This document shows, in pieces, positions 1,923 to 27,720 of a DNA stretch of 32,715 nucleotides (position 1 is its first letter; every line of letters starts with the position of its first letter). The translations under genes were made by a program, and so were the position numbers. A model generated the notes under the pieces. That model was given only the letters and a program-made list of their open reading frames with translations, was not told the DNA's origin and made no database searches. Source of the stretch: a plasmid; NCBI RefSeq assembly GCF_053078305.1, contig NZ_CP166878.1; one strand, written 5' to 3'.

Positions 1923-2987
1923 ATGGATAAAAAGACAAAAACATATCCTTTTGGTGACATTGAGTTTTTTGACCAGTTAGAGGAACATGCATGGGACCAG
2001 ATTCATGATGGTATGCTACCAATTATGGATTTGTATCTTGATCCGACAGTAACCGATATATTTATAAACAGGTATGACAATATATATACATCTGTCAATG
2101 GCAAGTATGTAAAGACCGACAGTTCCTTTTCCAGTGAACGGGCACTTAAAGCCTGGATTGATCAAATCGCAACGGTGTTGAGGCAGCCATTTTCAACGTC
2201 AGGAAACTATAAATATGGTGATGTCATTGAGCCTGTACTTGATGCCCGATTTCCCGATGGTTCCCGGTTGATGTGTACAGACCCGGTGATTTCACCGCAG
2301 GGTTCTACGGTAAGTCTTCGTAAAGTACCTAAGCAAATACTGGAAGAAAAAGATTTTATAAATTCCGGTATGTTGACGAGAGATATTCTTGATTATCTCA
2401 TTAGTGTTATACAAAAACGGAAAAATTTTATTGTTGCTGGTAATACTGGTTCTGGCAAAACATCACTTTTACGCTTGCTCGCCAGGTATATTGATACGAT
2501 GGAGCGTGTTATCACCGCCGAAGACACTCAAGAACTTCATATACACAGGTATTTTCCGTTAGGGATTGCTCTGGAAGCTGCACATCGTAAAGATGTGAAT
2601 GCGGATCTTCCTTCTCTGGTTCACCTGACTATGCGTGGTAATCCCGATCGTGTATGGGTTGGGGAGGTAAGAACGGCAGAGGCTATAGCTGCTTATTACA
2701 TGGTTCTGGCAAGTGGAACTATAGGTAATGCTACAACTCTGCACTCCGTTACCCCTATGGGGGCAATACGCAAAATGACCTGGCTTATGTCAAGCTATCT
2801 CAGTATCGATTTTCAGATAGCTCAGGATTTAATTATGTCAGAGGTTGACGTGATTATTCAGTGCCGGAGAACATCAAAGCATGGAAGAAGAATTACAGAT
2901 ATCGTCGAAATACGTGAAGGGAAAATTGTTCCTATATTCAAGTTTGATGAAGAGCAAGAAGTACATGTCAGGTTTGACAAAAAATGA
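1923..2987 (+). CDS. virB11: VirB11-family secretion ATPase
   Basis: The 354-aa ORF has the Walker A motif AGNTGSGKTSLLRLL. It also carries the downstream motifs ITAEDTQEL and RGNPDRVWVGEVR, which are typical of VirB11/CpaF hexameric ATPases. Confidence 0.85.
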   Translation: MDKKTKTYPFGDIEFFDQLEEHAWDQIHDGMLPIMDLYLDPTVTDIFINRYDNIYTSVNGKYVKTDSSFSSERALKAWIDQIATVLRQPFSTSGNYKYGDVIEPVLDARFPDGSRLMCTDPVISPQGSTVSLRKVPKQILEEKDFINSGMLTRDILDYLISVIQKRKNFIVAGNTGSGKTSLLRLLARYIDTMERVITAEDTQELHIHRYFPLGIALEAAHRKDVNADLPSLVHLTMRGNPDRVWVGEVRTAEAIAAYYMVLASGTIGNATTLHSVTPMGAIRKMTWLMSSYLSIDFQIAQDLIMSEVDVIIQCRRTSKHGRRITDIVEIREGKIVPIFKFDEEQEVHVRFDKK

Positions 2988-3000
2988 ACATTTAGCATTA

Positions 3001-3080
3001 TATGCTTATATGCTTATATGCTTATATGCTTATATGCTTATATGCTTATATGCTTATATGCTTATATGCTTATATGCTTA
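3001..3080. repeat. Perfect tandem array, 10 x 8 bp (TATGCTTA)
   Basis: Counted directly: ten uninterrupted TATGCTTA units. Degenerate units flank it (TAGCATTA at 2993-3000 and TATCATTG at 3081-3088). It starts 14 bp after the virB11 stop codon. Confidence 0.95.
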
Positions 3081-3105
3081 TATCATTGTGTTTGTGTGAA
3101 ATATT

Positions 3106-3299
3106 GCTGTAACATCGACGGTCTACGACCACCTACCACCTGAATAGCTGTAGGTTCCGTGCGGTCAGGCTTGGCAGGGGGCTGACGCGGTTCCTGGCGA
3201 CATGAAACTCCCTGGTTAGGGGTATCGGCGCGACCTGGCATCTGTGACTCTATAAAGCCATTTTTCGCGCCTTCCATGCCGCTAAAGCGGCATATTCCA
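3106..3299 (+). repeat. 194-bp dispersed non-coding repeat, copy A
   Basis: It runs from gctgtaacatcgacggtctacgacc to gccgctaaagcggcatattcca. It differs from copy C (18900-19093) at only 3 positions and from copy B (3962-4155) at roughly 20. All three copies are in the same orientation. Confidence 0.9.
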
Positions 3300-3366
3300 C
3301 ACTTCTAGATCCGGGGTTTTGGGTATATGCTATGTTTATATGCATAATTTATGTGGGGGGCTTGTT

Positions 3367-3612
3367 ATGAGAACAAATGTGGCAGTAAAAAAACGTAGTA
3401 TAAACGTATACTTAAATGCAGGGTTACTTGAAGAAGCAAAAGATCTTGATCTGAATGTTTCTGCTATCTCTAACAAAGCTCTCGAAAAAGCGGTAAGGGA
3501 GCGTAAGCGTGAACGCTGGATAGAAGAAAACCGTGCTGGCATTGAGGCATTAAACCGTTTTGTAGAAGATACCGGGATTTTTTCAGATGATGAAAATTTT
3601 GGGGTAATTTAG
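3367..3612 (+). CDS. ccdA: CcdA-family antitoxin
   Basis: The C-terminal half (RERWIEENRAGIEALNRFVEDTGIFSDDENF) parallels F-plasmid CcdA (RAERWKAENQEGMAEVARFIEMNGSFADENRDW, recalled from memory). I prefer the ATG at 3367, which is preceded by a GGGGGG ribosome-binding site, over the ORF-track start at 3319. The gene is coupled to ccdB. Confidence 0.85.
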   Translation: MRTNVAVKKRSINVYLNAGLLEEAKDLDLNVSAISNKALEKAVRERKRERWIEENRAGIEALNRFVEDTGIFSDDENFGVI

Positions 3613-3929
3613 TGAAACAATTTTCTGTCTACAAGAACAAATCGCGAAATAAACAGGCGTACCCCTATTTTATTGATATACAGGCAGAGATGCTTGCACA
3701 CCTTAACACCCGGTTGGTGATGCCTTTAACGCCAAAAGATAATTCAAACTCGCAGGTAAAGACGTTAACGCCAGTAATAAACATCAACCAGGTAGATTAT
3801 GTGGTTCTGACTACTATGATAACGACAACGGATGCAAAAAATCTGAACTCTGATAATGTCGTTATGGATGCTTCATATTTACGAGATCAACTGGTTTCTG
3901 CAATTGACATGATGATTCTGGGTATTTAA
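3612..3929 (+). CDS. ccdB: CcdB-family gyrase-poison toxin
   Basis: The 105-aa ORF starts with GTG, overlapping the ccdA stop codon. Its N-terminus (FSVYKNK...YPYFIDIQAEML...RLVMPL) and its C-terminus (AIDMMILGI) parallel F CcdB (FKVYTYK...RLFVDVQSDII...RMVIPL...AINLMFWGI, recalled from memory). Confidence 0.85.
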   Translation: MKQFSVYKNKSRNKQAYPYFIDIQAEMLAHLNTRLVMPLTPKDNSNSQVKTLTPVININQVDYVVLTTMITTTDAKNLNSDNVVMDASYLRDQLVSAIDMMILGI

Positions 3930-3961
3930 TTTTTGCAGGGTAGTAAATAGTAAAAAATATC

Positions 3962-4155
3962 GCTGTAACATCGACGGTCTACGACCACCTACCAGCCGAG
4001 TGGCTGTCTGTTCCGTGCAAATGGGCTTTGCAGGGGGCTGGCGCGGTTCCTGGCGACCTGAAAGCCCCTGGTTAGGGGTATCGGCGCGACCTGGCATCTG
4101 TGACTCTATGAAACCATTTTTCGCGCCTTCCATGCCGCTAAAGCGGCATATTCCA
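3962..4155 (+). repeat. 194-bp dispersed non-coding repeat, copy B
   Basis: It has the same ends and length as copies A and C. The divergent positions are clustered at about 3994-4046, with a few further downstream. It forms a direct repeat with copy A around ccdAB. Confidence 0.9.
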
Positions 4156-4233
4156 AACTTTGGAGCAGTTCTGCAATGTTGTTTGAATTGTTTCGTAGTC
4201 GTATCATTATTTTTTATGTGATGATTGTTTTTT

Positions 4234-4560
4234 TTATGTGTCTGACATTTTTCCAATCATGATTTCTGTGAGATTTGTATCAGCAAAATCTCCTTTCCCC
4301 GATTCAGTGTCAAAGTCGCCTGGCGTGAACTTATGTACGTCTTGCCAGACTGCGAAGCAGGTAGGGCATGTTACAGGTAGTTCGCCCTCCGCTATCTTTT
4401 CACAACTTTCTACCAGTTCTTGTTTCTCGTTGTACCTGATGTTATAGCCGCTTGTGCAAAGCGTTTCATACCCGTGAGCGCCCGTCACTATATGTGTGGC
4501 GGTTCTTTCTGTGATTTTTCCATCAACTAATAACTGTTCATGCGTTGTGATCGTTTGCAT
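4234..4560 (-). CDS. Hypothetical small acidic protein with a CPTC motif
   Basis: The 108-aa ORF is the only long frame in this interval and runs divergently from the T4SS operon. It has a single CxxC motif (VTCPTCF). I recognise no family. Confidence 0.5.
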   Translation of the reverse strand: MQTITTHEQLLVDGKITERTATHIVTGAHGYETLCTSGYNIRYNEKQELVESCEKIAEGELPVTCPTCFAVWQDVHKFTPGDFDTESGKGDFADTNLTEIMIGKMSDT

Positions 4561-4696
4561 GTCTGTCTCTCATAATTGTTGGTTTATGTGATTGTTGGGG
4601 CGACCGTAAAAATATACGCCAGATGATGGGAGAGCATCTTATTTCGTATTGCTCAAAAAAACATATGACAAATATCACAAAAATGAAGTGCAGGTA

Positions 4697-15806: not shown

Positions 15807-16787
15807 GTGCAGGGCCATATGATTAGTCCGGCAATTGATTATTTTGCGGCAAACTTGCCATACCGACCTTATCACGCGAATGAATTGCTCTATGGGCTTC
15901 GTATCGATAAGGCAGCTAAAGCAGTGCTGGCGCGTTATATACAGCATAATCCACCTCATGCAATGTACTGGCTTGTTTTTGACGTTGACAGGCCAGTTGC
16001 GGCGATTGACTGGAATGATCTTAATGCGCCCACACCTAATTTTACGGTCAAAAATCCGGTTAATGGTCATGCACACCTGTTTTATGGGTTAAAAACGGCA
16101 GTTCGTGTTGCCAAAGACGGTAGCATTAAGGCGATCGAGTTTGCTGCTGCGGTAGAGCGAGGATTACGTGACAAACTTAAATCAGATATCGGCTATGCAG
16201 GGCTGATCTGTAAAAATCCTCTCCATACATGCTGGCAGGTTGTTGAATGGCGTGGAGAACTTTATGAGTTAGCTGAACTGGCTGATTATGTTGATTTGTA
16301 CGCGTCAACAGCGGCTAACGATGAACAGGCATTCGATATCGACTTTAGTTATGGGCTTGGGCGAAATTGTTGGCTCTTCAATCTGACCCGTATCTGGTCA
16401 TATACAGCAATCCGGCAGGGCTGGCCTGATTTCCCGCAATGGAAAGAAGCGGTGATTCAGCGTGTCGAAATGTATAACGTGCAGTTAAGCGTGCCTTTGT
16501 CTCACAAAGAATGTGTATGCATTGGCTCCAGCATCGCCAAATGGACGCATAGACGCTTCACTGAAGCTGGATTTGAGCAATATGTAGCTGATACCCATAC
16601 ATCAGAAATTCAGGCTCGTAGAGGGCGTAAGAATCGCTCAGAAGTGCAGGCTGCTAAGGGGCGTAAAGGTGGGAAAATATCTAAAAGAGGGATTGTTGAG
16701 GATTCTGCGCGGAGTTTGAAACCGTGGGTAGAGTTAGGGATCAGTCGGGCAACCTATTATCGACGTAGGGCAAATGAGACCAAATAA
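15807..16787 (+). CDS. rep: ColE2-type replication initiator (Replicase/primase family)
   Basis: Long stretches match my recollection of ColE2-P9 Rep: HALYWL.FDVD, NITVKNP.NGHAHL.Y, GLICKNP, AIRQGWP, VIQRVEMYN, SIAK.THR.F and SARSLKPW..LGISRATYYR. The ORF-track start is the GTG at 15807, and the ATG at 15819 is an alternative. Confidence 0.85.
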   Translation: MQGHMISPAIDYFAANLPYRPYHANELLYGLRIDKAAKAVLARYIQHNPPHAMYWLVFDVDRPVAAIDWNDLNAPTPNFTVKNPVNGHAHLFYGLKTAVRVAKDGSIKAIEFAAAVERGLRDKLKSDIGYAGLICKNPLHTCWQVVEWRGELYELAELADYVDLYASTAANDEQAFDIDFSYGLGRNCWLFNLTRIWSYTAIRQGWPDFPQWKEAVIQRVEMYNVQLSVPLSHKECVCIGSSIAKWTHRRFTEAGFEQYVADTHTSEIQARRGRKNRSEVQAAKGRKGGKISKRGIVEDSARSLKPWVELGISRATYYRRRANETK

Positions 16788-16994: not shown

Positions 16995-17291
16995 TTGAGC
17001 ACGGCAAGAAGACAAATGGAGAGTATGATGATGGTCTGTATACTTGTTGTGTCAAATAACGGTCGGGAAGAATTGATTGATTTTAATCCCGATCATGATT
17101 TAGCGCACATTATCAAATCATACCGGACACCAGAAAACAGGATGGTATGTATTATCCAGGATGGTAAGCGCATTCTTCGTTGGGATCGCAGTTATGCTTC
17201 CCGTGCAAAAAATCACTGGCGTAAGGTAGATCCAGACAGTTTTGAGATTTTAGGGTCTGTTGAATATCTCCGCTATGTTGGTCAGGGTTAG
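16995..17291 (+). CDS. Hypothetical protein
   Basis: This 98-aa ORF contains several internal Met codons, so the true start is uncertain. Its stop codon lies 2 bp before the Tn21-like inverted repeat at 17294. I recognise no family. Confidence 0.4.
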   Translation: MSTARRQMESMMMVCILVVSNNGREELIDFNPDHDLAHIIKSYRTPENRMVCIIQDGKRILRWDRSYASRAKNHWRKVDPDSFEILGSVEYLRYVGQG

Positions 17292-17293
17292 TT

Positions 17294-17327
17294 GGGGCGT
17301 TGAAAACGGAAAATAACCCACGCTAAG
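17294..17327 (+). repeat. Tn3-family (Tn21-like) terminal inverted repeat, outer end to the left
   Basis: GGGGCGTTGAAAACGGAAAATAACCCACGCTAAG resembles the Tn21/Tn501 inverted repeat (..CAGAAAACGGAAAATAAAGCACGCTAAG, recalled from memory). It has the family hallmarks of a GGGG start and a TAAG end. Confidence 0.7.
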
Positions 17328-17644
17328 ACTGTTTTTTAACCAGGCTATGATAATGCTATCTGTGACGGATGATGGTCGTTGCTCTTTTGTTAATGCTAAC
17401 GGATGCGTACATTAGCATTAACTTTTTGTGTTATGTTGCACGTGAATTTTTGAGTTTTAATATTTATATAATGTTATGAATATTAAAGATAAATGATGAA
17501 CATGCTTTGTGATGGCTTTTGGCGCATAGATTGATCTTAAGATCTGCGCATGTTATTTTTATGCGGTTTTGACGAATTTATAAGGGTAGGACGTTCCCGT
17601 AACAGCGTCCAGGGGAGGGGGTAGCGAATTTATAGCCCCCGGAA

Positions 17645-17727
17645 TGCAACAACCCCCTGATATCTCTCTTAGAGCTTTTGCGGGGCCAAAGAAGATAATC
17701 AGGGGGTCCAAAGCAGGCTTTTGCCTG
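17645..17727 (-). ncRNA. Predicted CopA/Inc-type antisense RNA controlling repA
   Basis: A minus-strand promoter reads TTGTAT (17761-17756), a 16-nt spacer, then TATAAT (17739-17734). The transcript would form a small hairpin (caggc/gcctg, 17713-17726). It would then form a long bulged hairpin closed by CCCCCTGAT/ATCAGGGGG (17653-17706), followed by the tail UUGUUGCAUU. It lies 55-130 nt upstream of repA, as in IncFII replicons. Confidence 0.55.
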
Positions 17728-17780
17728 TAAAGGATTATAGCAAATGCATTTTTCAATACAAGACTACTGCCCGGCAATAA

Positions 17781-18506
17781 GTGCGGGCGGTGGTGGCTGA
17801 AAAGAACAATTCCTTAATCCCCCGCATATCGCCGTCAGGGGTGGCCAAACAAAGTCCATGCTATAACGTTGTGTCGCGTAAGCGACGCCGTTTCCTCAAT
17901 CGCTGGATTAAATCGCTGGCGACGGTCGCTGGGCGTGTCAAAATCAAAAACGAACTCCGCCGCCGTATCCGGCATAACCGATATTGGGTTAATGAGGCTA
18001 ACAAGTTTGGCATAGAGGCACTTTGCGAACTGATGTTAGCTATCCTGGATGATCTCGATTTACGCTCCTGGGAAACCAGGCATAACCTCGAAACACTGGC
18101 AGAACGTGCCGGACTGGTGACACGCAGTGACGCGGGGCGTAAATCTATTTCCCGTGCCAGTAGGGGATGTGATCGCCTGGTCTGGTTGAATGCGATCATT
18201 ACAGATAAAGCGCCGTTTAACCCCTATGATGCACGGTGTGCCTGTAAACACATTGAAGTAACCGAAGACTTCTTTGCCATACTCGGCATTCCGTTAAAAC
18301 TGGTTTATCGGGAACGTGCCAGGCTGTTAAAGGCAGATCCTAATGAAATGATTTACTCCGGGGATGCCAGACTGATAGCTATCAGAGTCCAGAACTGGAC
18401 ACGGAAAGCGGCAGCCGGATTAGCCCGGATGAAAGCGAAACGCGACGCAGCTCGACAACGCAAAAAAGAATATTACGCTCACCCACCTACCCCTATTCCG
18501 GTCTGA
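17781..18506 (+). CDS. repA: IncFII-family replication initiator RepA
   Basis: ETLAERAGLVTRSDAGRKSISRASRGCDRLVWLNAIIT parallels R100/R1 RepA (TTLAIECGLATESGAGKLSITRATRALTFLSELGLIT, recalled from memory). The C-terminus is basic. The start codon (GTG at 17781) is uncertain. Confidence 0.8.
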   Translation: MRAVVAEKNNSLIPRISPSGVAKQSPCYNVVSRKRRRFLNRWIKSLATVAGRVKIKNELRRRIRHNRYWVNEANKFGIEALCELMLAILDDLDLRSWETRHNLETLAERAGLVTRSDAGRKSISRASRGCDRLVWLNAIITDKAPFNPYDARCACKHIEVTEDFFAILGIPLKLVYRERARLLKADPNEMIYSGDARLIAIRVQNWTRKAAAGLARMKAKRDAARQRKKEYYAHPPTPIPV

Positions 18507-18578
18507 TACAGGCTAACTTACCGCCTTATGGGGCGGTGTATCGCCACGTCCATAATAAAAAGCTGTACAAAAAATAGT

Positions 18579-18613
18579 CTTGGCGTGGGTTATTTTCCGT
18601 TTTCCATGCTCAG
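18579..18613 (-). repeat. Tn21-like inverted-repeat core, inverted partner of 17294-17327
   Basis: The reverse complement reads CTGAGCATGGAAAACGGAAAATAACCCACGCCAAG. The 26-nt core matches the left copy with one mismatch, and the similarity continues a further 10 nt inward. The outer GGGG is missing. Confidence 0.6.
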
Positions 18614-18659
18614 AAAAGAGCAGTTATAAGCTGTATCATTGGGTAAACAATGCACAGGT

Positions 18660-18668
18660 TGTGGATAA
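18660..18668 (-). promoter_or_regulatory. Consensus DnaA box (TTATCCACA), probable start of the IncFII-type origin
   Basis: TGTGGATAA on the plus strand is a 9/9 match to the consensus. It lies 154 bp after the repA stop codon, which is the spacing expected for an R1-type oriR. Confidence 0.55.
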
Positions 18669-18705
18669 TCATACTTAAAGTGCAAACGATATGCCGCAAT
18701 TACTC

Positions 18706-18750
18706 TTTTGCTTCTCTTTTAGTTACTTACGTACTAAAAGAGAAGCAAAA
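18706..18750. repeat. Perfect 18-bp inverted repeat (45-nt hairpin/cruciform)
   Basis: TTTTGCTTCTCTTTTAGT (18706-18723) pairs with ACTAAAAGAGAAGCAAAA (18733-18750). Two further pairs are possible inside the 9-nt spacer. Confidence 0.85.
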
Positions 18751-18899
18751 AAGAAAAACATTACTGTTATCCCCTTTAACAAGTGAATAACCTAAAAACA
18801 TCGGCGCAAGCGCCTCAAAAGTAGCACCCCTCGCAAGCTCGGGGCATTAGAAACAACAGCATCCCATCATCACAATCGAACTATTATTCATCTATCTTC

Positions 18900-19093
18900 G
18901 CTGTAACATCGACGGTCTACGACCACCTACCACCTGAATAGCTGTAGGTTCCGTGCGGTCAGGCTTAGCAGGAGGCTGACGCGGTTCCTGGCGACATGAA
19001 ACTCCCTAGTTAGGGGTATCGGCGCGACCTGGCATCTGTGACTCTATAAAGCCATTTTTCGCGCCTTCCATGCCGCTAAAGCGGCATATTCCA
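18900..19093 (+). repeat. 194-bp dispersed non-coding repeat, copy C
   Basis: It differs from copy A at 3 positions (cttagcaggagg and ccctagtt). One of these creates an in-frame stop in the minus-strand ORF that copies A and B appear to carry. Confidence 0.9.
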
Positions 19094-21529: not shown

Positions 21530-21622
21530 TGATCGTGGCGCGATTGCCAGCGAGCTAGGGGTTCCGTGGGAATTTCTGCGATAGGGGTTTGAAGCCCAAC
21601 CGTACGAAAACGTACGCTAAGT

Positions 21623-21862
21623 TCATTTCTTGAACAACCTGGCTGACTCTATGTATTTGTACAGCGTTGGCCTCGATATCCCCATCAACACACAAATCTG
21701 CGCAACGGTATGTTTTTTCTCGTTATAGAGTTGAACAGCAAGGGCCTGTTTATCCTTACTCAGTGTTTTCGGCCTGCCGCCCTTACGTCCTCTGGCTCGT
21801 GCTGCTTGAAGCCCGGCCTGAGTTCTCTGGGGGGTCGCGCCCATTTCCTCTAAAAGTCTCAC
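21623..21862 (-). pseudogene. tnpR: Serine recombinase (resolvase) fragment, C-terminal HTH part only
   Basis: AGLQAARARGRKGGRPKTLSKDK...ICVLMGISRPTLYKYI is the linker and HTH domain of a resolvase. The roughly 100-aa catalytic N-terminal domain is missing. The stop codon lies 1 bp from the 38-bp inverted repeat. Confidence 0.75.
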
Positions 21863-21885
21863 CTTGCTTAGGTAATTAATTGAAT

Positions 21886-22085
21886 TTATTTATAAAACAT
21901 TGCAATTTTAGCATCATTTTTTATTGTTCTTTTTAACCTGAAGTACGTCGATCGAGAGATACCTGTTTTTTCTGTCACACTGCCCAGAGATTCTCCCTGT
22001 GATATAAGCTCCAACGCTGTAGGCGTTCGTGGATGCTTCTTCCTGCCAAATTTTACGCCTGCGGCAAGTGCCGCTATTGGGGTCA
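21886..22085 (-). pseudogene. Second serine recombinase C-terminal fragment
   Basis: I translated the minus strand by hand: ..PIAALAAGVKFGRKKHPRTPTALELISQGESLGSVTEKTGISRSTYFRLKRT.. followed by a stop. There is no start codon, and the frame is cut exactly at junction-motif copy 3. Confidence 0.6.
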
Positions 22086-22109
22086 GTTTGGATATAGAGA
22101 ATTATTGTA
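22086..22109 (+). repeat. Junction motif, copy 3
   Basis: GTTTGGATATAGAGAATTATTGTA marks the point where the second recombinase fragment is truncated. Confidence 0.7.
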
Positions 22110-22404
22110 CGGCAAGCCTGTTTTTTGAACAGACTTACCTATCGCGATAGGGTGTACTCCCGTGCTATACGGCGTTTTCAGGGGCTTTGGCCTTAATCGG
22201 ATAACCTAAATGCGACATAGCAAGAGCGATAACTTAAAGGCGATAGCCGCTGATGTTAAATCAATACGTTAGAATCTTAAATTGATTAAATAATGCGCTT
22301 AACGTACAAAAATTTCCGTTTCCCAAACCGCCCCCATATTGTACGTTTCCCTAACCGACCCCTTACTGGTCGCGGAAAAATCCAGGTTTCCGGCCTGGAA
22401 CCCC

Positions 22405-22536
22405 TATACAATCACTTGATTCGATAATTATAAAATTAAGTGATTTTATGATTGCATGATTCTATGAGCATGGGATTATTAGAATGTTTGGCAGAGGTAC
22501 TATGTGAACAAAGGGGAGGGGAAAATGCCTAAAGTT
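22405..22536 (+). repeat. Orphan duplicate of the parA promoter/operator and first parA codons
   Basis: This 132 bp aligns without gaps to 24844-24975, with about 10 substitutions. It includes the inverted-repeat operator, the ribosome-binding site and ATG CCT AAA GTT, after which the sequence diverges. Confidence 0.85.
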
Positions 22537-22614
22537 GGAGCAGCGGGAGCGTTCGAACAGAGACTTACGGTTTCGTTCTTTGTGCAGCAGTTGAAACCGT
22601 AATTATTTGTTTTA

Positions 22615-22865
22615 GGGGTTTGAGGCTCAGTGGAACAATAACCGCCGTTAAGCGGTCATTTTAAATAGCCAAAAATCAACCAGCCAATTTACATCGTGAA
22701 TCTGCGTTCTTGGCTATCTGTTTTGGGGGGCCAAGTTGGCTTTACTCATCCTGGCCGTTTGCGGAACAAAAGACGTTGTTGATCTCAACAGATTGATTAA
22801 CCTGTTATTGACCATTCAATTGAACCGCTTAACCGCCTTTTGAGTTCCACTACTCCCCAAACCCC
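22615..22865. mobile_element. Miniature Tn3-derived element (TIME-like), 251 bp, with target-site duplication
   Basis: The 38-bp ends are GGGGTTTGAGGCTCAGTGGAACAATAACCGCCGTTAAG (22615-22652) and, read as reverse complement, GGGGTTTGGGGAGTAGTGGAACTCAAAAGGCGGTTAAG (22828-22865). The first 22 nt resemble the Tn3 inverted repeat as I recall it. An identical 5-bp flank, TTTTA, lies at 22610-22614 and 22866-22870. There is no ORF. Confidence 0.8.
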
Positions 22866-22882
22866 TTTTATGCCAAGTAGAA

Positions 22883-23091
22883 GGGGTTTGAGGGCCAACC
22901 GTACGAAAACGTACGGTAAGAGGAAAATTATCGTCTTAAAAATCGATTAGTAGACAATGCCGTCCGTTAAGTGCCAATTTTCGATTAAAAAGACACCGTT
23001 TTGATGGCGTTTTTCTATGTCCATTATGTTTTGATATATCAGACAGTTACTTCACTAACGTACGTTTTCGTTCCATTGGACTTCAGCCCCC
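22883..23091. mobile_element. Miniature Tn3-derived element carrying res-like sites, 209 bp, with target-site duplication
   Basis: The ends are GGGGTTTGAGGGCCAACCGTACGAAAACGTACGGTAAG (22883-22920) and, read as reverse complement, GGGGGCTGAAGTCCAATGGAACGAAAACGTACGTTAGTG (23053-23091). The 5-bp flank TAGAA lies at 22878-22882 and 23092-23096. The interior has TGTC..GACA-type res-like subsites, for example TGTCCATTATGTTTTGATATATCAGACA at 23018-23045. Confidence 0.8.
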
Positions 23092-26344: not shown

Positions 26345-26368
26345 AAAAGGGGCTTTTCGCCCCTTTTG
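26345..26368. terminator. Bidirectional terminator hairpin between convergent operons
   Basis: AAAAGGGG-cttttcgc-CCCCTTTT has an A run and a T run on either side. It lies between the par operon (plus strand) and vapD (minus strand). Confidence 0.7.
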
Positions 26369-26458
26369 AACCAAATCTTAAAGGCCACTCGCTTTCCGGT
26401 AGGGGGCAACATCCAGGCTTAACCTTCCGTCCTCCACAACATCAGGCCATGGAGGATT

Positions 26459-26737
26459 TCAACCCTTTATAGACGAAGTGAAGTCAGACCACTGTTCAAT
26501 CCTGAATGCTCTGATATCCCTGACTGAATTTGGGAACCATTCAAGAGCTTTTAATGCGTTCATAGCCTGAAAAAGGTTTGCCATATTTTCATCGCTATTT
26601 GTGTACAGGCTTCCCTGGATTCGCTCAAATCCGTACCTTTTAAGGGTCGAACTTATATCGTTGTAAGCCTGTGACACGCCTTTCGGATGGTGTTTTTCTG
26701 TATCTGCAACGGTTAAATCAAATGATATTGCGTACAT
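26459..26737 (-). CDS. vapD: VapD (Cas2-like endoribonuclease)
   Basis: MYAISFDL...HHPKGVSQAYNDI...GSLYTN...MANLFQAMNALKALEWF..SVRDIRAFRIEQWSDFT closely matches VapD sequences as I recall them. Confidence 0.85.
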   Translation of the reverse strand: MYAISFDLTVADTEKHHPKGVSQAYNDISSTLKRYGFERIQGSLYTNSDENMANLFQAMNALKALEWFPNSVRDIRAFRIEQWSDFTSSIKG

Positions 26738-26740
26738 AAC

Positions 26741-27031
26741 TTACTCTGCATCAGGATCTTGTAATAGTTTTGAAAGTTTGTACAACTCTTTCTCACCTGT
26801 CTGAACCAGTATAATGTTGACAAGAATATCACCATCAGGTAGTTCTTGGGCTGGCTCTCCTACCTCGTAAGGAATACCAAGCAGCCCGAATGTCTTAATC
26901 GTACCTGTTGGAATTTGCACTGTATTCATTGTTTTCGCTCCGATTTCCAGCCTCATCTTATCAGTCATAGCTTTGATAATAGCCTGACTGTCAGGTGACT
27001 GGGCCGCAATTACTTCTTCTAATGTTCTCAT
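26741..27031 (-). CDS. Hypothetical protein in the VapX position
   Basis: The 96-aa ORF ends 3 bp before vapD starts. Its N-terminal 30 aa (RTLEEVIAAQSPDSQAIIKAMTDKMRLEIG) resemble the N-terminus of the upstream XRE protein, but it has no HTH. Confidence 0.55.
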   Translation of the reverse strand: MRTLEEVIAAQSPDSQAIIKAMTDKMRLEIGAKTMNTVQIPTGTIKTFGLLGIPYEVGEPAQELPDGDILVNIILVQTGEKELYKLSKLLQDPDAE

Positions 27032-27049
27032 CTGTTGATGCCCAATTTT

Positions 27050-27349
27050 TTACAGGTGGAAAGCCATACGCTTGCCTGTAGGCAATGTCACGTCCAGGCT
27101 TAACTCGCCGCCCAAAGCTTTTACATAACGTTTAAGCGTCGATATTCTCGGATCGTTGTCAGTTTGCTCCATCCTGGCAACTGATGGTTGTTTTACTCCC
27201 ATCATTGTAGCCAGTTCGGTTTGGGATATGTTCAGTTCATCACGTAAAGCACTAAGTGCGAGCTGAATGCTGGCTTTTTCAACTCGGTCGGCTACGTGCG
27301 CCTGCATTTCAGGACTCTCTTTAGCCAGTAGTTCTCTGTAGGTAGCCAT
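27050..27349 (-). CDS. XRE-family HTH protein (HigA-like antitoxin/regulator)
   Basis: The HTH segment is ISQTELATMMGVKQPSVARMEQ and the C-terminus is KRYVKALGGELSLDV. I prefer the ATG at 27349, which has a GGAGAA ribosome-binding site, over the ORF-track start at 27400. Confidence 0.75.
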   Translation of the reverse strand: MATYRELLAKESPEMQAHVADRVEKASIQLALSALRDELNISQTELATMMGVKQPSVARMEQTDNDPRISTLKRYVKALGGELSLDVTLPTGKRMAFHL

Positions 27350-27720
27350 GTTATTTCTCCAGTTTTGCAAGATGTTCACGGTATTCATTATATACTGCAT
27401 TATAACGAATACACTATAATTTCCAGAAGAACAGGGCTATTTAACATAATGGACGTTATCAGCACCACCGGATCACAGTTCGTTGTCAGATCTGAAAAAT
27501 CCGCTCAAAAGATCATGTTTTCCTGGGCGTTTTTCGTCGTTTTTTATGTTGCTTATTTGTTAATAAAATCTCGTTTCTTGTTTTGGCTGAATTTGGATGT
27601 GAAAGCCTTATATTTGCAAGTTATCCGGTGAAGGGAGGTAGCCGAGACTGAGGATTGATTGTTTTGTACAAGTTCTAATGCATAATGTGTACATATAGTA
27701 GCGTTAGCATAGGGCGTAGT

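Follow-up and report, generated by a model that had tools for sequence, protein, structure and literature searches.

In the window, a 32,715-nt stretch of plasmid DNA analysed as a whole (NZ_CP166878.1), an IncFII-like repA gene and its control region lie between two inverted sequences that resemble transposon ends. We asked whether this pair bounds a mobile cassette, serves the replicon, or is what earlier insertions left behind. A repeat search and a reading of the sequence confirmed the description in an earlier note: the repeats are Tn21-like, inverted and placed around repA and its control region (Table 1). The arms (17297-17355 and 18551-18609) are 59 nt long each, 80% complementary and separated by 1195 nt. 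The 26-nt core GAAAACGGAAAATAACCCACGCTAAG is found at 17302-17327 on the plus strand and, with the one mismatch already noticed, at 18579-18604 on the minus strand; at three or fewer mismatches these were the only two copies across the 32.7 kb, and 0 were expected from 100 shuffles. Inward of both cores the likeness goes on (ACTGTTTTTT and ACTATTTTTT), as had been claimed. On its outer side the left copy has GGGG (17294-17297), and the GGGG ends of the pair point outward, which is the geometry of a genuine transposon. The right copy, without the outer GGGG, does fall between the repA stop at 18506 and the DnaA box at 18660-18668. Between the arms the list of open reading frames holds only a leader ORF and repA, and tblastn searches with a Tn2503-like TnpA and TnpR found no homologue there or elsewhere in the window, in agreement with the reported absence of transposase and resolvase genes; an autonomous Tn3-family transposon would encode a TnpA of ~1000 aa, as a rule along with TnpR and res.

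Table 1. Features of the repA locus and its flanks (window coordinates)
Feature	Position	Strand	Evidence and remarks
pilI-like gene	16995-17291	+	Pfam PilI PF10623, 111.8 bits; stop codon 17289-17291, 2 nt ahead of left arm
Left arm, solo Tn3-family terminal IR, GGGG outermost	17294-17327	+	34 nt; 38-bp IR minus ~4 nt around positions 5-8
Subterminal transposon remnant joined to left arm (ACTGTTTTTTAACCAGGCTATGA)	17328-17350	+	Matches dispersed IR-plus-~23-nt unit
Palindrome TTAATGCTAA...TTAGCATTAA	17387-17424	.	Left edge of shared replicon module
Candidate leader peptide ORF, 28 aa	17644-17730	+	ORF list; overlaps PK-repBA match
repBA-type regulatory pseudoknot and stem-loop, antisense-RNA target	17651-17778	+	Rfam RF01089 PK-repBA, 86.4 bits, E = 3.4e-19
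repA, GTG start 17781 (17871 in other annotations)	17781-18506	+	Pfam PF02387 IncFII_repA, 29.3 bits, cut-off 22.9
Hairpin ACCGCCTTATGGGGCGGT after repA	18520-18537	+	Conserved across replicon family (alignments)
Last-codons remnant of tnpA (ACTATTTTTTGTACA on minus strand), joined to right arm	18564-18578	-	Matches Tn2503-like tnpA end in L008 and L027
Right arm, positions 11-38 of a Tn2501/Tn2503-type 38-bp IR	18579-18606	-	Positions 1-10 including GGGG lost; 10-nt deletion
DnaA box TGTGGATAA (TTATCCACA on minus strand)	18660-18668	-	Sequence read; pi 0.000 in window clade
Predicted origin core, including palindrome 18700-18756	18678-18790	.	Inverted repeat I3; pi 0.008

Judged by their sequences, both arms derive from terminal sequences of Tn3-family transposons belonging to the Tn2501/Tn2502/Tn2503 lineage, class II elements of Enterobacterales. 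A complete element of this kind is present in a Yersinia ruckeri plasmid (L027): it is 6.77 kb long, carries tnpA-tnpR-arsCBR-arsH, is flanked by the 5-bp duplication TAATT and has 38-bp IRs reading GGGGTCCG(C/T)TTGGAAAACGGAAA(A/T)TATCCCACGCTAAG. This arsenic element corresponds to Tn2503/Tn2502, which are 6,769 bp long and related to Tn2501; Tn2503 consists of tnpRA and arsHRBC and its IRs are described as 53-bp and imperfect (PMC3316555). Both arms share the IR type at 24-25 of the 26 inner positions as well as the subterminal ACTGTTTTTT(GTACA), which overlaps the tnpA stop. The left-arm inner core is identical at 25/26 positions to the ars-end IR of the L027 element. Against the tnpA end in L008, the left arm with its extension matches at 34/36 positions and the right arm with its 15-nt extension at 42/46; in both L008 and L027 the TnpA of the Tn2503-like transposon ends in ..LYKKQS followed by the stop. 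The other transposon end was not found within 22 kb in L008/L026. Compared with real Tn21-type IRs (L008 and L070), the arms match at 24/26 positions of the inner core and the left arm has GGGG, but inward of the IR Tn21 reads CCGGTGGCAGC where the arms read ACTGTTTTTT..., and this extension fits Tn2501/Tn2503 better. Unlike Tn2501/Tn2502/Tn2503, the window is devoid of tnpA, tnpR, res and ars genes, and the arms are single damaged ends of different elements.

The replicon itself resembles the pMET1/pCRY ('IncFII(pMET)/(pCRY)'-like) replicons, with a homologous repA, hairpin, DnaA box and origin core. Its RepA is 84-89% identical in amino acids to pMET1/pCRY-type RepA and scored 53.8 bits against the NCBIfam model RepA_IncFII_LM, under the cut-off of 70; about 430 PLSDB records contain this RepA. 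The minimal replicon of pMET1 has been demonstrated, and an AT-rich region homologous to the origin core of the window is needed for pMET1 replication (PMC2262945). Two differences from pMET1 were seen: the window clade carries a Tn2501-type relic at the place where pMET1 has a Tn501/Tn1721-like solo IR, and the window plasmid has another backbone with a second rep gene. The earlier note had called the replicon R1-type. The spacer downstream of repA is indeed the equivalent of the R1/ColIb 'CIS', whereas the control region is of the IncB/I-complex type, with a repBA pseudoknot (the gathering score of PK-repBA is 45), and not the classic CopA/CopT; by analogy with IncB/I-complex replicons, the short ORF at its start would be the leader of a repBA-type control region. 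The layout is IncFII/I-complex-like, in which the DnaA box is expected downstream of repA past a spacer of ~150-170 bp: after the repA stop come the DnaA box and then the conserved core from 18678. About 110 nt of the origin core are 100% identical between the window and a group of 24-kb plasmids, with flanks at ~90%, and the post-repA hairpin has a pi of 0.012 in the window clade and 0.022 in the pMET1 clade. Replication would rest on these ordinary parts, namely antisense RNA and pseudoknot control, repA, hairpin, DnaA box and origin core. A consensus promoter scan of 17200-18900 found nothing, and Rfam hits to microRNAs (including mir-155, which coincides with the 17387-17424 hairpin) and to hairpin ribozymes were rejected as spurious palindrome matches.

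The two arms differ in their distribution. The right arm keeps a conserved position in the repA-origin spacer of the replicon family and occurs without the left arm in the 24-kb plasmids L002 and L071 and in the metagenomic relatives L040, L063 and L067. A full-length right relic lies at the same site in L040, L063, L067 and L028, which defines the deletion in the window as CCA[AGCGGCTCCC]TGCTCAG. The GTACAAAAAA block beside the right arm is common to all of the replicon family, including those members in which no IR can be recognised. These data suggest that the spacer separating the repA terminator hairpin from the DnaA box acquired a transposon end, which became fixed, and that the surviving part of this end (IR positions 11-38 and the last ~5 tnpA codons) was passed down vertically with the pMET1/pCRY-type replicon. 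The remainder of the transposon would have been deleted, possibly by recombination between short GTACAAAAAA / tnpA-tail repeats, and a later 10-nt deletion would have taken the GGGG end; we infer this order of events. The 10-nt deletion is present in the window and L002 and absent in L028, a distribution that departs from the RepA tree and indicates that recombination has blurred the history.

The left arm, in contrast, was restricted to a pilI-linked plasmid group of ~30 kb (27-35 kb). With its 34-nt IR and 23 subterminal nucleotides it would be a second relic, belonging to this ~30-kb E. coli plasmid lineage only. Relative to a 38-bp IR it lacks ~4 nt, which accounts for its shortness; the gap sits after box A, ahead of the inner boxes, and in L028 and L029 AGGG replaces GGGG. 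The same IR-plus-~23-nt unit is dispersed over 1653 plasmid records whose contexts are unrelated, pLVPK (L003), L004 and L005 among them, and its reading frame, ..KKQ(S/A) and stop, suggests that the subterminal remnant is a tnpA 3' end. Homology of pilI to the IncI-type plasmid L072 stops at the stop codon, and that to the 24-kb plasmid L071, where pilI is inverted and elsewhere on the plasmid, stops 1 nt sooner at 17290. On the other side, DNA homology with the 24-kb plasmids begins at the palindrome, at 17390. The left arm marks the seam at which the replicon module (17390-19092) meets a backbone of other origin (second rep gene, then pilI), in line with the part that Tn3-family ends are known to play in making plasmids mosaic.

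We then compared the variation of the arms with that of the replicon. In the window clade, pi reached 0.217 in the right IR core, against 0.168 for the four-fold sites of repA; the origin core stood at 0.008 and the DnaA box at 0. The right relic has also suffered indels in this clade, namely loss of the 10 outer nt and, in L040 and L063, of 1-2 nt. The arms were among the most variable segments of the 30-kb group and varied independently. Taken with the differing phylogenetic distributions, this independent variation and roughly neutral decay bear out the suggestion of scars of two insertions. The best explanation, to which we assign a probability of about 0.8, is that the arms are inert solo-IR remnants of Tn2501/Tn2502/Tn2503-lineage ends left by two separate events. 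Neither arm would now be usable as a transposition substrate, and the pair would not move repA. The arm cores are identical to each other at 25-26/26 positions, closer than the right arm of the window is to its counterpart in the 24-kb plasmids (20/26), which could hint at a shared event or gene conversion. Gene conversion between the arms is unsupported, as left and right polymorphisms do not co-vary in six 30-kb plasmids.

It had also been proposed that repA was captured in a transposon-derived cassette. Such a non-autonomous Tn3-derived composite would resemble a TIME-COMP and be mobile, now or once, given a Tn2501/Tn21-type transposase in trans. The IRs are of a single type, inverted and with outer ends outward, and there is a precedent in TIME-COMP2 of the Pseudomonas plasmid pZM1P1, in which a REP module between Tn3-derived IR elements transposes (PMC4133298); the locus is alike in having a replication module between Tn3-family IR-bearing ends. 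We nevertheless consider a cassette very improbable. A database comparison had been proposed to learn whether the IR-repA-IR unit recurs in varied contexts with 5-bp duplications. The whole unit (17294-18606) was found in 10 PLSDB records and 13/5426 E. coli genomes; all of these copies were in the pilI-linked 27-35 kb backbone, and none was on a chromosome. No second context was found in PLSDB, the 5426 E. coli genomes, 185k species genomes (one per species) or metagenomes, and the mobile-cassette reading was rejected on this ground. There is no 5-bp target duplication around the unit, since TAGTT flanks it on the left and, judged from where the undeleted L040 relic ends, TGCTC on the right. 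Intact IRs of ~38 bp with GGGG tips were not found: the right arm is without IR positions 1-10, and the deletion in the 34-nt left arm separates box A from the inner boxes. TIMEs, by comparison, are found in several contexts, with their 38-bp IRs intact and duplications of 5-6 bp (PMC4133298), and none of this applies to 17294-18606. Sister plasmids have the right arm alone, and their homology (24-kb plasmids, 17390-19092) runs through the right arm and starts 40-60 nt inside the left arm, so the breakpoints are off the arms. The origin lies outside the unit, and a moved copy would part the probably cis-acting RepA from it. Both arms carry the tnpA-tail-like motif ACTNTTTTTT, which counts against a cassette only weakly because Tn2503 has 53-bp imperfect IRs. 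Inversion of the segment by intramolecular replicative transposition was rejected on geometry, since it would be expected to turn the outer ends toward the segment and repA against the origin, and neither was seen.

The opposite view would be that the arms belong natively to the replicon, as conserved parts of it, and resemble Tn3-family ends by chance or convergence. The right arm does hold a conserved position, and the adjoining GTACAAAAAA block persists even where no IR can be recognised. However, the right arm is derived from a Tn3-family end, so that of the refuting outcome foreseen in the earlier note, conserved replicon parts with no relation to such ends, only the positional conservation applies. 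Its 42/46 match to the tnpA end of a complete, duplication-flanked transposon runs past the IR into the tnpA stop region, relatives hold full 38-bp versions with GGG(G) termini, and the IR-plus-extension is dispersed in unrelated contexts in those 1653 plasmids. Moreover, metagenomic relatives carry an insertion sequence of ~1.36 kb within the pMET1-clade relic, between ..CCTTAACG and TACAATAAT.., and this was assigned to the IS110 family, not to IS5075 itself. IS4321/IS5075, of the same family, target Tn21-family terminal repeats (PMC8269217); the sister relic is alike in hosting such an insertion, while the window has none. Chance resemblance thus keeps hardly any probability and is already effectively refuted.

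Co-option of the right arm for a replicon function finds no support within the window clade, where the arm (pi 0.217) varies no less than repA four-fold sites (0.168). The pMET1 clade behaves differently. There the same register of the spacer is occupied by a solo IR of another, Tn501/Tn1721-like type, and this relic is still identical at 35/38 positions to a dispersed bona fide IR family. Among 21-22 unique sequences from many genera, pi in this relic was 0.047 over the inner 26 nt and 0.177 over the outer 12 nt, compared with 0.26-0.28 in adjacent spacer blocks and 0.316 at four-fold sites. The strong conservation of the inner 26 nt hints at co-option in the pMET1 clade, and together with the second IR type at the same register it suggests that the site may not be purely a passive graveyard. 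The IR block might then act as a cis-acting replication element (RepA loading or termination) or as a transposase-binding decoy giving the plasmid target immunity to cognate Tn3-family transposons, in which case the inner transposase-binding part would stay and the cleavage end be lost. Mutations in gamma-delta ends reportedly can abolish transposition with immunity kept (Wiater and Grindley 1990). Transposition and target immunity are both mediated through TnpA (PMC9579193). Several observations speak against co-option, and we regard it as unlikely: the window-clade relic evolves at a neutral rate with the indels described above; the pMET1-type contig L051 has a 12-nt internal deletion in the relic and several contigs carry an IS inside it; and the family members L010, L011 and L048 have no recognisable IR. 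The left arm would stand outside any such function, because sister plasmids do without it. Visual inspection of the conserved pMET1-clade relic revealed no convincing IHF site or promoter. A fuller version, equally doubtful, would be that the pMET1/pCRY family domesticated a Tn3-family end in the repA-origin spacer, with the inner part selected and the tip decaying, as a cis replication element or a target-immunity decoy for small plasmids; the window clade would then carry a Tn2501-type replacement, swapped in via the shared tnpA-tail CTGTTTTTTGTAC.

Our analysis indicates that the arms are fossils rather than a mobile cassette, and the finding is largely ordinary. Recognising them as such keeps repA from being misannotated as transposon cargo and otherwise carries little weight for the window. 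The pMET1-clade relic, which evolves ~7x slower than neutral sites at a register shared by solo IRs of two Tn3-family types, may matter more: if its slow rate does reflect a function in cis replication or target immunity, a plasmid would have recruited a transposon end, and this would offer a cheap, direct test case. Relics of Tn3-family ends are common in this DNA. Besides the left-arm-like solo ends in 1653 plasmids, the window holds at least seven further Tn3-family IR-like sequences at 21584-23091, and a true TIME-like element of 209 bp with a TAGAA duplication occupies 22883-23091.

Searching the window for repeats, we found 59-nt inverted arms with 80% complementarity that share the 26-nt core GAAAACGGAAAATAACCCACGCTAAG, with one mismatch in the right copy. 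GGGG directly precedes the left copy and is lacking at the right one. No further copy of the core occurs in the window at up to three mismatches; by chance, no copy would be expected. These data confirmed the earlier observation of inverted Tn21-like repeats around repA and its control region. Given the elements found between and beyond the arms, the control region is of the IncB/I-complex kind, inside a broad IncFII-like group. Transposase and resolvase homologues were found nowhere in the window.

Features of the repA region and other elements of the window
Feature	Position	Strand	Location	Support
Inverted arms (59 nt)	17297-17355; 18551-18609			Repeat search
Core, left copy	17302-17327	+	Left arm	
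Core, right copy	18579-18604	-	Right arm	
GGGG	17294-17297		Before left copy	
Palindrome	17387-17424		Upstream of repA control region	
Leader ORF, 28 aa	17644-17730		Between arms	ORF list
repBA pseudoknot	17651-17778		Between arms	Rfam, strong match, 86 bits (gathering score 45)
repA	17781-18506		Between arms	Pfam IncFII_repA above cut-off; NCBIfam RepA_IncFII_LM below cut-off
Conserved hairpin	18520-18537		Downstream of repA, before right arm	
DnaA box	18660-18668		Beyond right arm	
Origin core with palindrome	18678 onward		After DnaA box	
Second replication-initiator gene	15807-16787		~500 nt upstream of left arm	Pfam Replicase PF03090, 147 bits
~195-nt repeat	3106-3299; 3960-4155; 18900-19093			
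IR-like sequences	21584-21621; 22079-22116; 22615-22652; 22883-22920	+		
IR-like sequences	22335-22298; 22362-22336; 23091-23056	-		
Resolvase HTH-domain remnant	21632-21853	-		PF02796, 48 bits
209-bp element	22883-23091			

Sequence comparison shows that the arms are true ends of Tn3-family transposons and belong to the Tn2501/Tn2503 lineage. A complete element of 6.77 kb is present in L027, a plasmid of Yersinia ruckeri, with the gene order tnpA-tnpR-arsC-arsB-arsR-arsH, 38-bp IRs (GGGGTCCG(C/T)TTGGAAAACGGAAA(A/T)TATCCCACGCTAAG) and the 5-bp duplication TAATT on its flanks, in agreement with the published Tn2503/Tn2502 (6,769 bp, tnpRA plus arsHRBC), kin of Tn2501 (PMC3316555). When aligned with the related tnpA end of Salmonella plasmid p33836-1 (L008), the left arm was identical at 34/36 positions and the right arm at 42/46, the latter agreement reaching 15 nt beyond the IR into the last tnpA codons (..LYKKQS*). 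The IR of Tn21 proper matches 24/26 of the core, but its inward continuation is different. The left-arm type (IR plus ~23 nt) was present in 1653 PLSDB plasmid records; in the records fetched (L003-L005 and L046) it has the full 38-bp IR, GGGGTCCGCTTGGAAAACGGAAAATATCCTACGTTAAG, and in L003 (pLVPK), L004 and L005 it lies in unrelated intergenic settings. The left-arm type is a dispersed transposon end and not replicon sequence. Its adjoining ~23 nt contain a small hairpin, and apparently solo copies of the IR are dispersed over large Klebsiella and other plasmids.

The 1.6-kb region was 95-99% identical to ten PLSDB plasmids from E. coli (28.6-35.4 kb; the 30-kb group), with pilI immediately upstream in 10/10. 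The whole unit was found in 13 of 5426 complete E. coli genomes, each time on plasmids of the same kind and never on a chromosome. A second group of 24-28-kb plasmids has only the stretch from 17390/17549 to 19092 in common (~87-90% identity); more distant relatives include pMET1, whose minimal replicon (repA and an AT-rich origin region) was shown by experiment and is close kin of that of pCRY (PMC2262945), and many Enterobacterales plasmids. In the RepA tree, the window's clade is sister to the pMET1 clade. The window also encodes a second replication initiator, with ~67-68% DNA identity to rep genes from small plasmids of 4-6 kb. As this gene is present besides repA, the plasmid has two replication systems, with the left arm between them and pilI between the second rep gene and the arm.

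We weighed the readings offered in the earlier note. A replication gene captured in a transposon-derived cassette has a real precedent in TIME-COMP2, a transposing element of a Pseudomonas plasmid in which Tn3-derived miniature elements flank a REP module (PMC4133298), but the unit at 17294-18606 shows 0/3 of its hallmarks (38-bp IRs that are intact, duplication of the target, occurrence in several contexts). The proposed check for recurrence with 5-bp target duplications was run: no second context appeared in PLSDB, one genome per species, metagenomes or the 5426 E. coli genomes, and the unit's flanks (TAGTT on the left, TGCTC on the right) show no duplication. The outer domain is damaged in both arms, homology to sister plasmids crosses the right arm and starts 40-60 nt inside the left one, and the putative unit does not include the origin. 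On these grounds a mobile cassette carrying repA was rejected. What held was the reading as scars of two insertions, since the arms differ in distribution and their polymorphisms do not co-vary. The right arm occurs at the same place, with the left arm absent, in the 24-kb plasmids L002 and L071 and in metagenomic relatives L040, L063 and L067, all of which have NusG-like and HTH genes upstream of repA, as in pMET1-type plasmids. Because L040, L063, L067 and L028 (a 30-kb-group plasmid) keep a full-length right relic (e.g. GGGAGCCGCTTGGAAAACGG... adjoining CTGCTCAGG), the window's right arm must have lost IR positions 1-10 by a 10-nt deletion, CCA[AGCGGCTCCC]TGCTCAG. From the repA 3' end on, L028 (CP088859.1) resembles the 24-kb/metagenomic lineage, and its right relic is undeleted; the deletion is common to the window and L002, a pattern suggesting that the replicon recombined internally or that the deletion recurred.

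The left arm is confined to the 30-kb lineage and starts 2 nt past the pilI stop codon. Homology of pilI to an IncI-type plasmid and to the 24-kb plasmids, where pilI lies at another place in the opposite orientation, stops at, or ≤1 nt from, this codon. The 30-kb and 24-kb groups share only the replicon module (17390-19092), pilI, the ~195-nt repeat and a few short matches (84-342 nt, within 4228-4569 and 26345-27625). These limits, together with the end of pilI homology at the arm, indicate that the left arm is the seam at which the replicon module meets a different backbone. To the right of the arm, base-for-base homology begins with a palindrome with a perfect stem, TTAATGCTAA(N)TTAGCATTAA, kept in both groups.

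Co-option for replicon function was unsupported for the window plasmid. Among ten sequences of its clade, diversity (pi) of the right IR core was 0.217 (slightly inflated by 1-2-nt indels) versus 0.168 at repA four-fold degenerate sites; the origin core, DnaA box and hairpin had values of 0.008, 0 and 0.012. In six 30-kb plasmids the arms were among the most variable segments (variable columns 8/62 and 14/43; repA 21/726), and left- and right-arm polymorphisms showed no co-variation. High arm diversity without co-variation indicates that both arms act as neutral fossils in the window's lineage. The finding is a further case of something already known, plasmid-borne relics of solo Tn3-family IRs.

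A side result concerns the repA-origin spacer of the replicon family. pMET1 and ~20 unique relatives (Klebsiella, Salmonella, Serratia, Pectobacterium, Erwinia, Pantoea, Shimwellia and metagenomes) carry a different solo IR at the register of the window's right arm, in the same orientation: GGGG(A/G)T(A/G)GTTTGGATTTCG(A/G)AAATTATTGTACGTTAAG, then GCTGTTTTTTGTAC, placed directly after conserved GTACAAAAAA. The relic matches a further dispersed IR family at 35/38 positions, and one copy from that family lies in the window at 22079-22116. More distant members retain only GTACAAAAAA(C) and scattered fragments. As the conserved spacer block is identical to the tnpA tail in these transposons, we infer that a transposon end fused into the spacer early in the family. 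At this register the window's clade would later have gained an end of Tn2501 type, for which recombination across shared CTGTTTTTTGTAC is one possible route; alternatively, independent insertions at this register may have occurred.

In pMET1-clade spacers (L006, L007, L009, L016-L021, L023, L025, L032-L070), the relic's inner 26 nt had a pi of 0.047, ~7-fold below repA four-fold sites (0.316), while the outer 12 nt (0.177) and adjacent blocks (0.26-0.28) were near neutral; the origin core had 0.038. Such a contrast over so short a distance suggests that, in this clade, the transposase-binding segment of the relic is under purifying selection. Mutations in gamma-delta ends can abolish transposition while immunity stays. 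The slow inner 26 nt would fit co-option of the pMET1-clade relic, possibly for a cis-acting replication role or for target immunity, which is mediated by TnpA (PMC9579193). A general function is, however, opposed by neutral drift in the window's clade, a 12-nt internal deletion in one pMET1-type contig, ISs inside the relic in several contigs and the lack of a recognisable IR in some family members. The Pantoea stewartii chromosome NZ_CP046558.1 (L023) carries a pMET1-type repA, relic and origin; homology stops within the palindrome of the origin, suggesting that a plasmid replicon was integrated there and truncated.

The inserted element, found inside the pMET1-type relic of several metagenomic contigs, belongs to the IS110 family (~1.36 kb; NCBIfam transpos_IS110, 359 bits). 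It lies in L036 (reverse strand 2718-4080), L044, L050, L053, L058 and L069, and also in L049 and L054, at a fixed point between ..TTAACG and TACAAT.. of the IR. IS4321/IS5075, whose targets are terminal repeats of Tn21 type, have been reported to behave in the same way (PMC8269217). In L036, another Tn3-family tnpA end adjoins the repA terminator hairpin.

Elsewhere in the window, a cluster of seven or more additional Tn3-family IR-like sequences occupies 21584-23091, which looks like a transposon graveyard. The 209-bp element there, flanked by a perfect target duplication of 5 bp (TAGAA), has inverted 38-bp ends of Tn1000-like type and the appearance of a true Tn3-derived miniature element (TIME/MITE). 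The ~195-nt sequence occurs three times; the origin-proximal copy, to which the others are 98% and 90% identical, lies directly downstream of the origin, where the shared replicon module ends on its right side. The repeat's single-stranded DNA fold has z = -2.5, and the repeat could be a candidate single-strand initiation or promoter-like signal.
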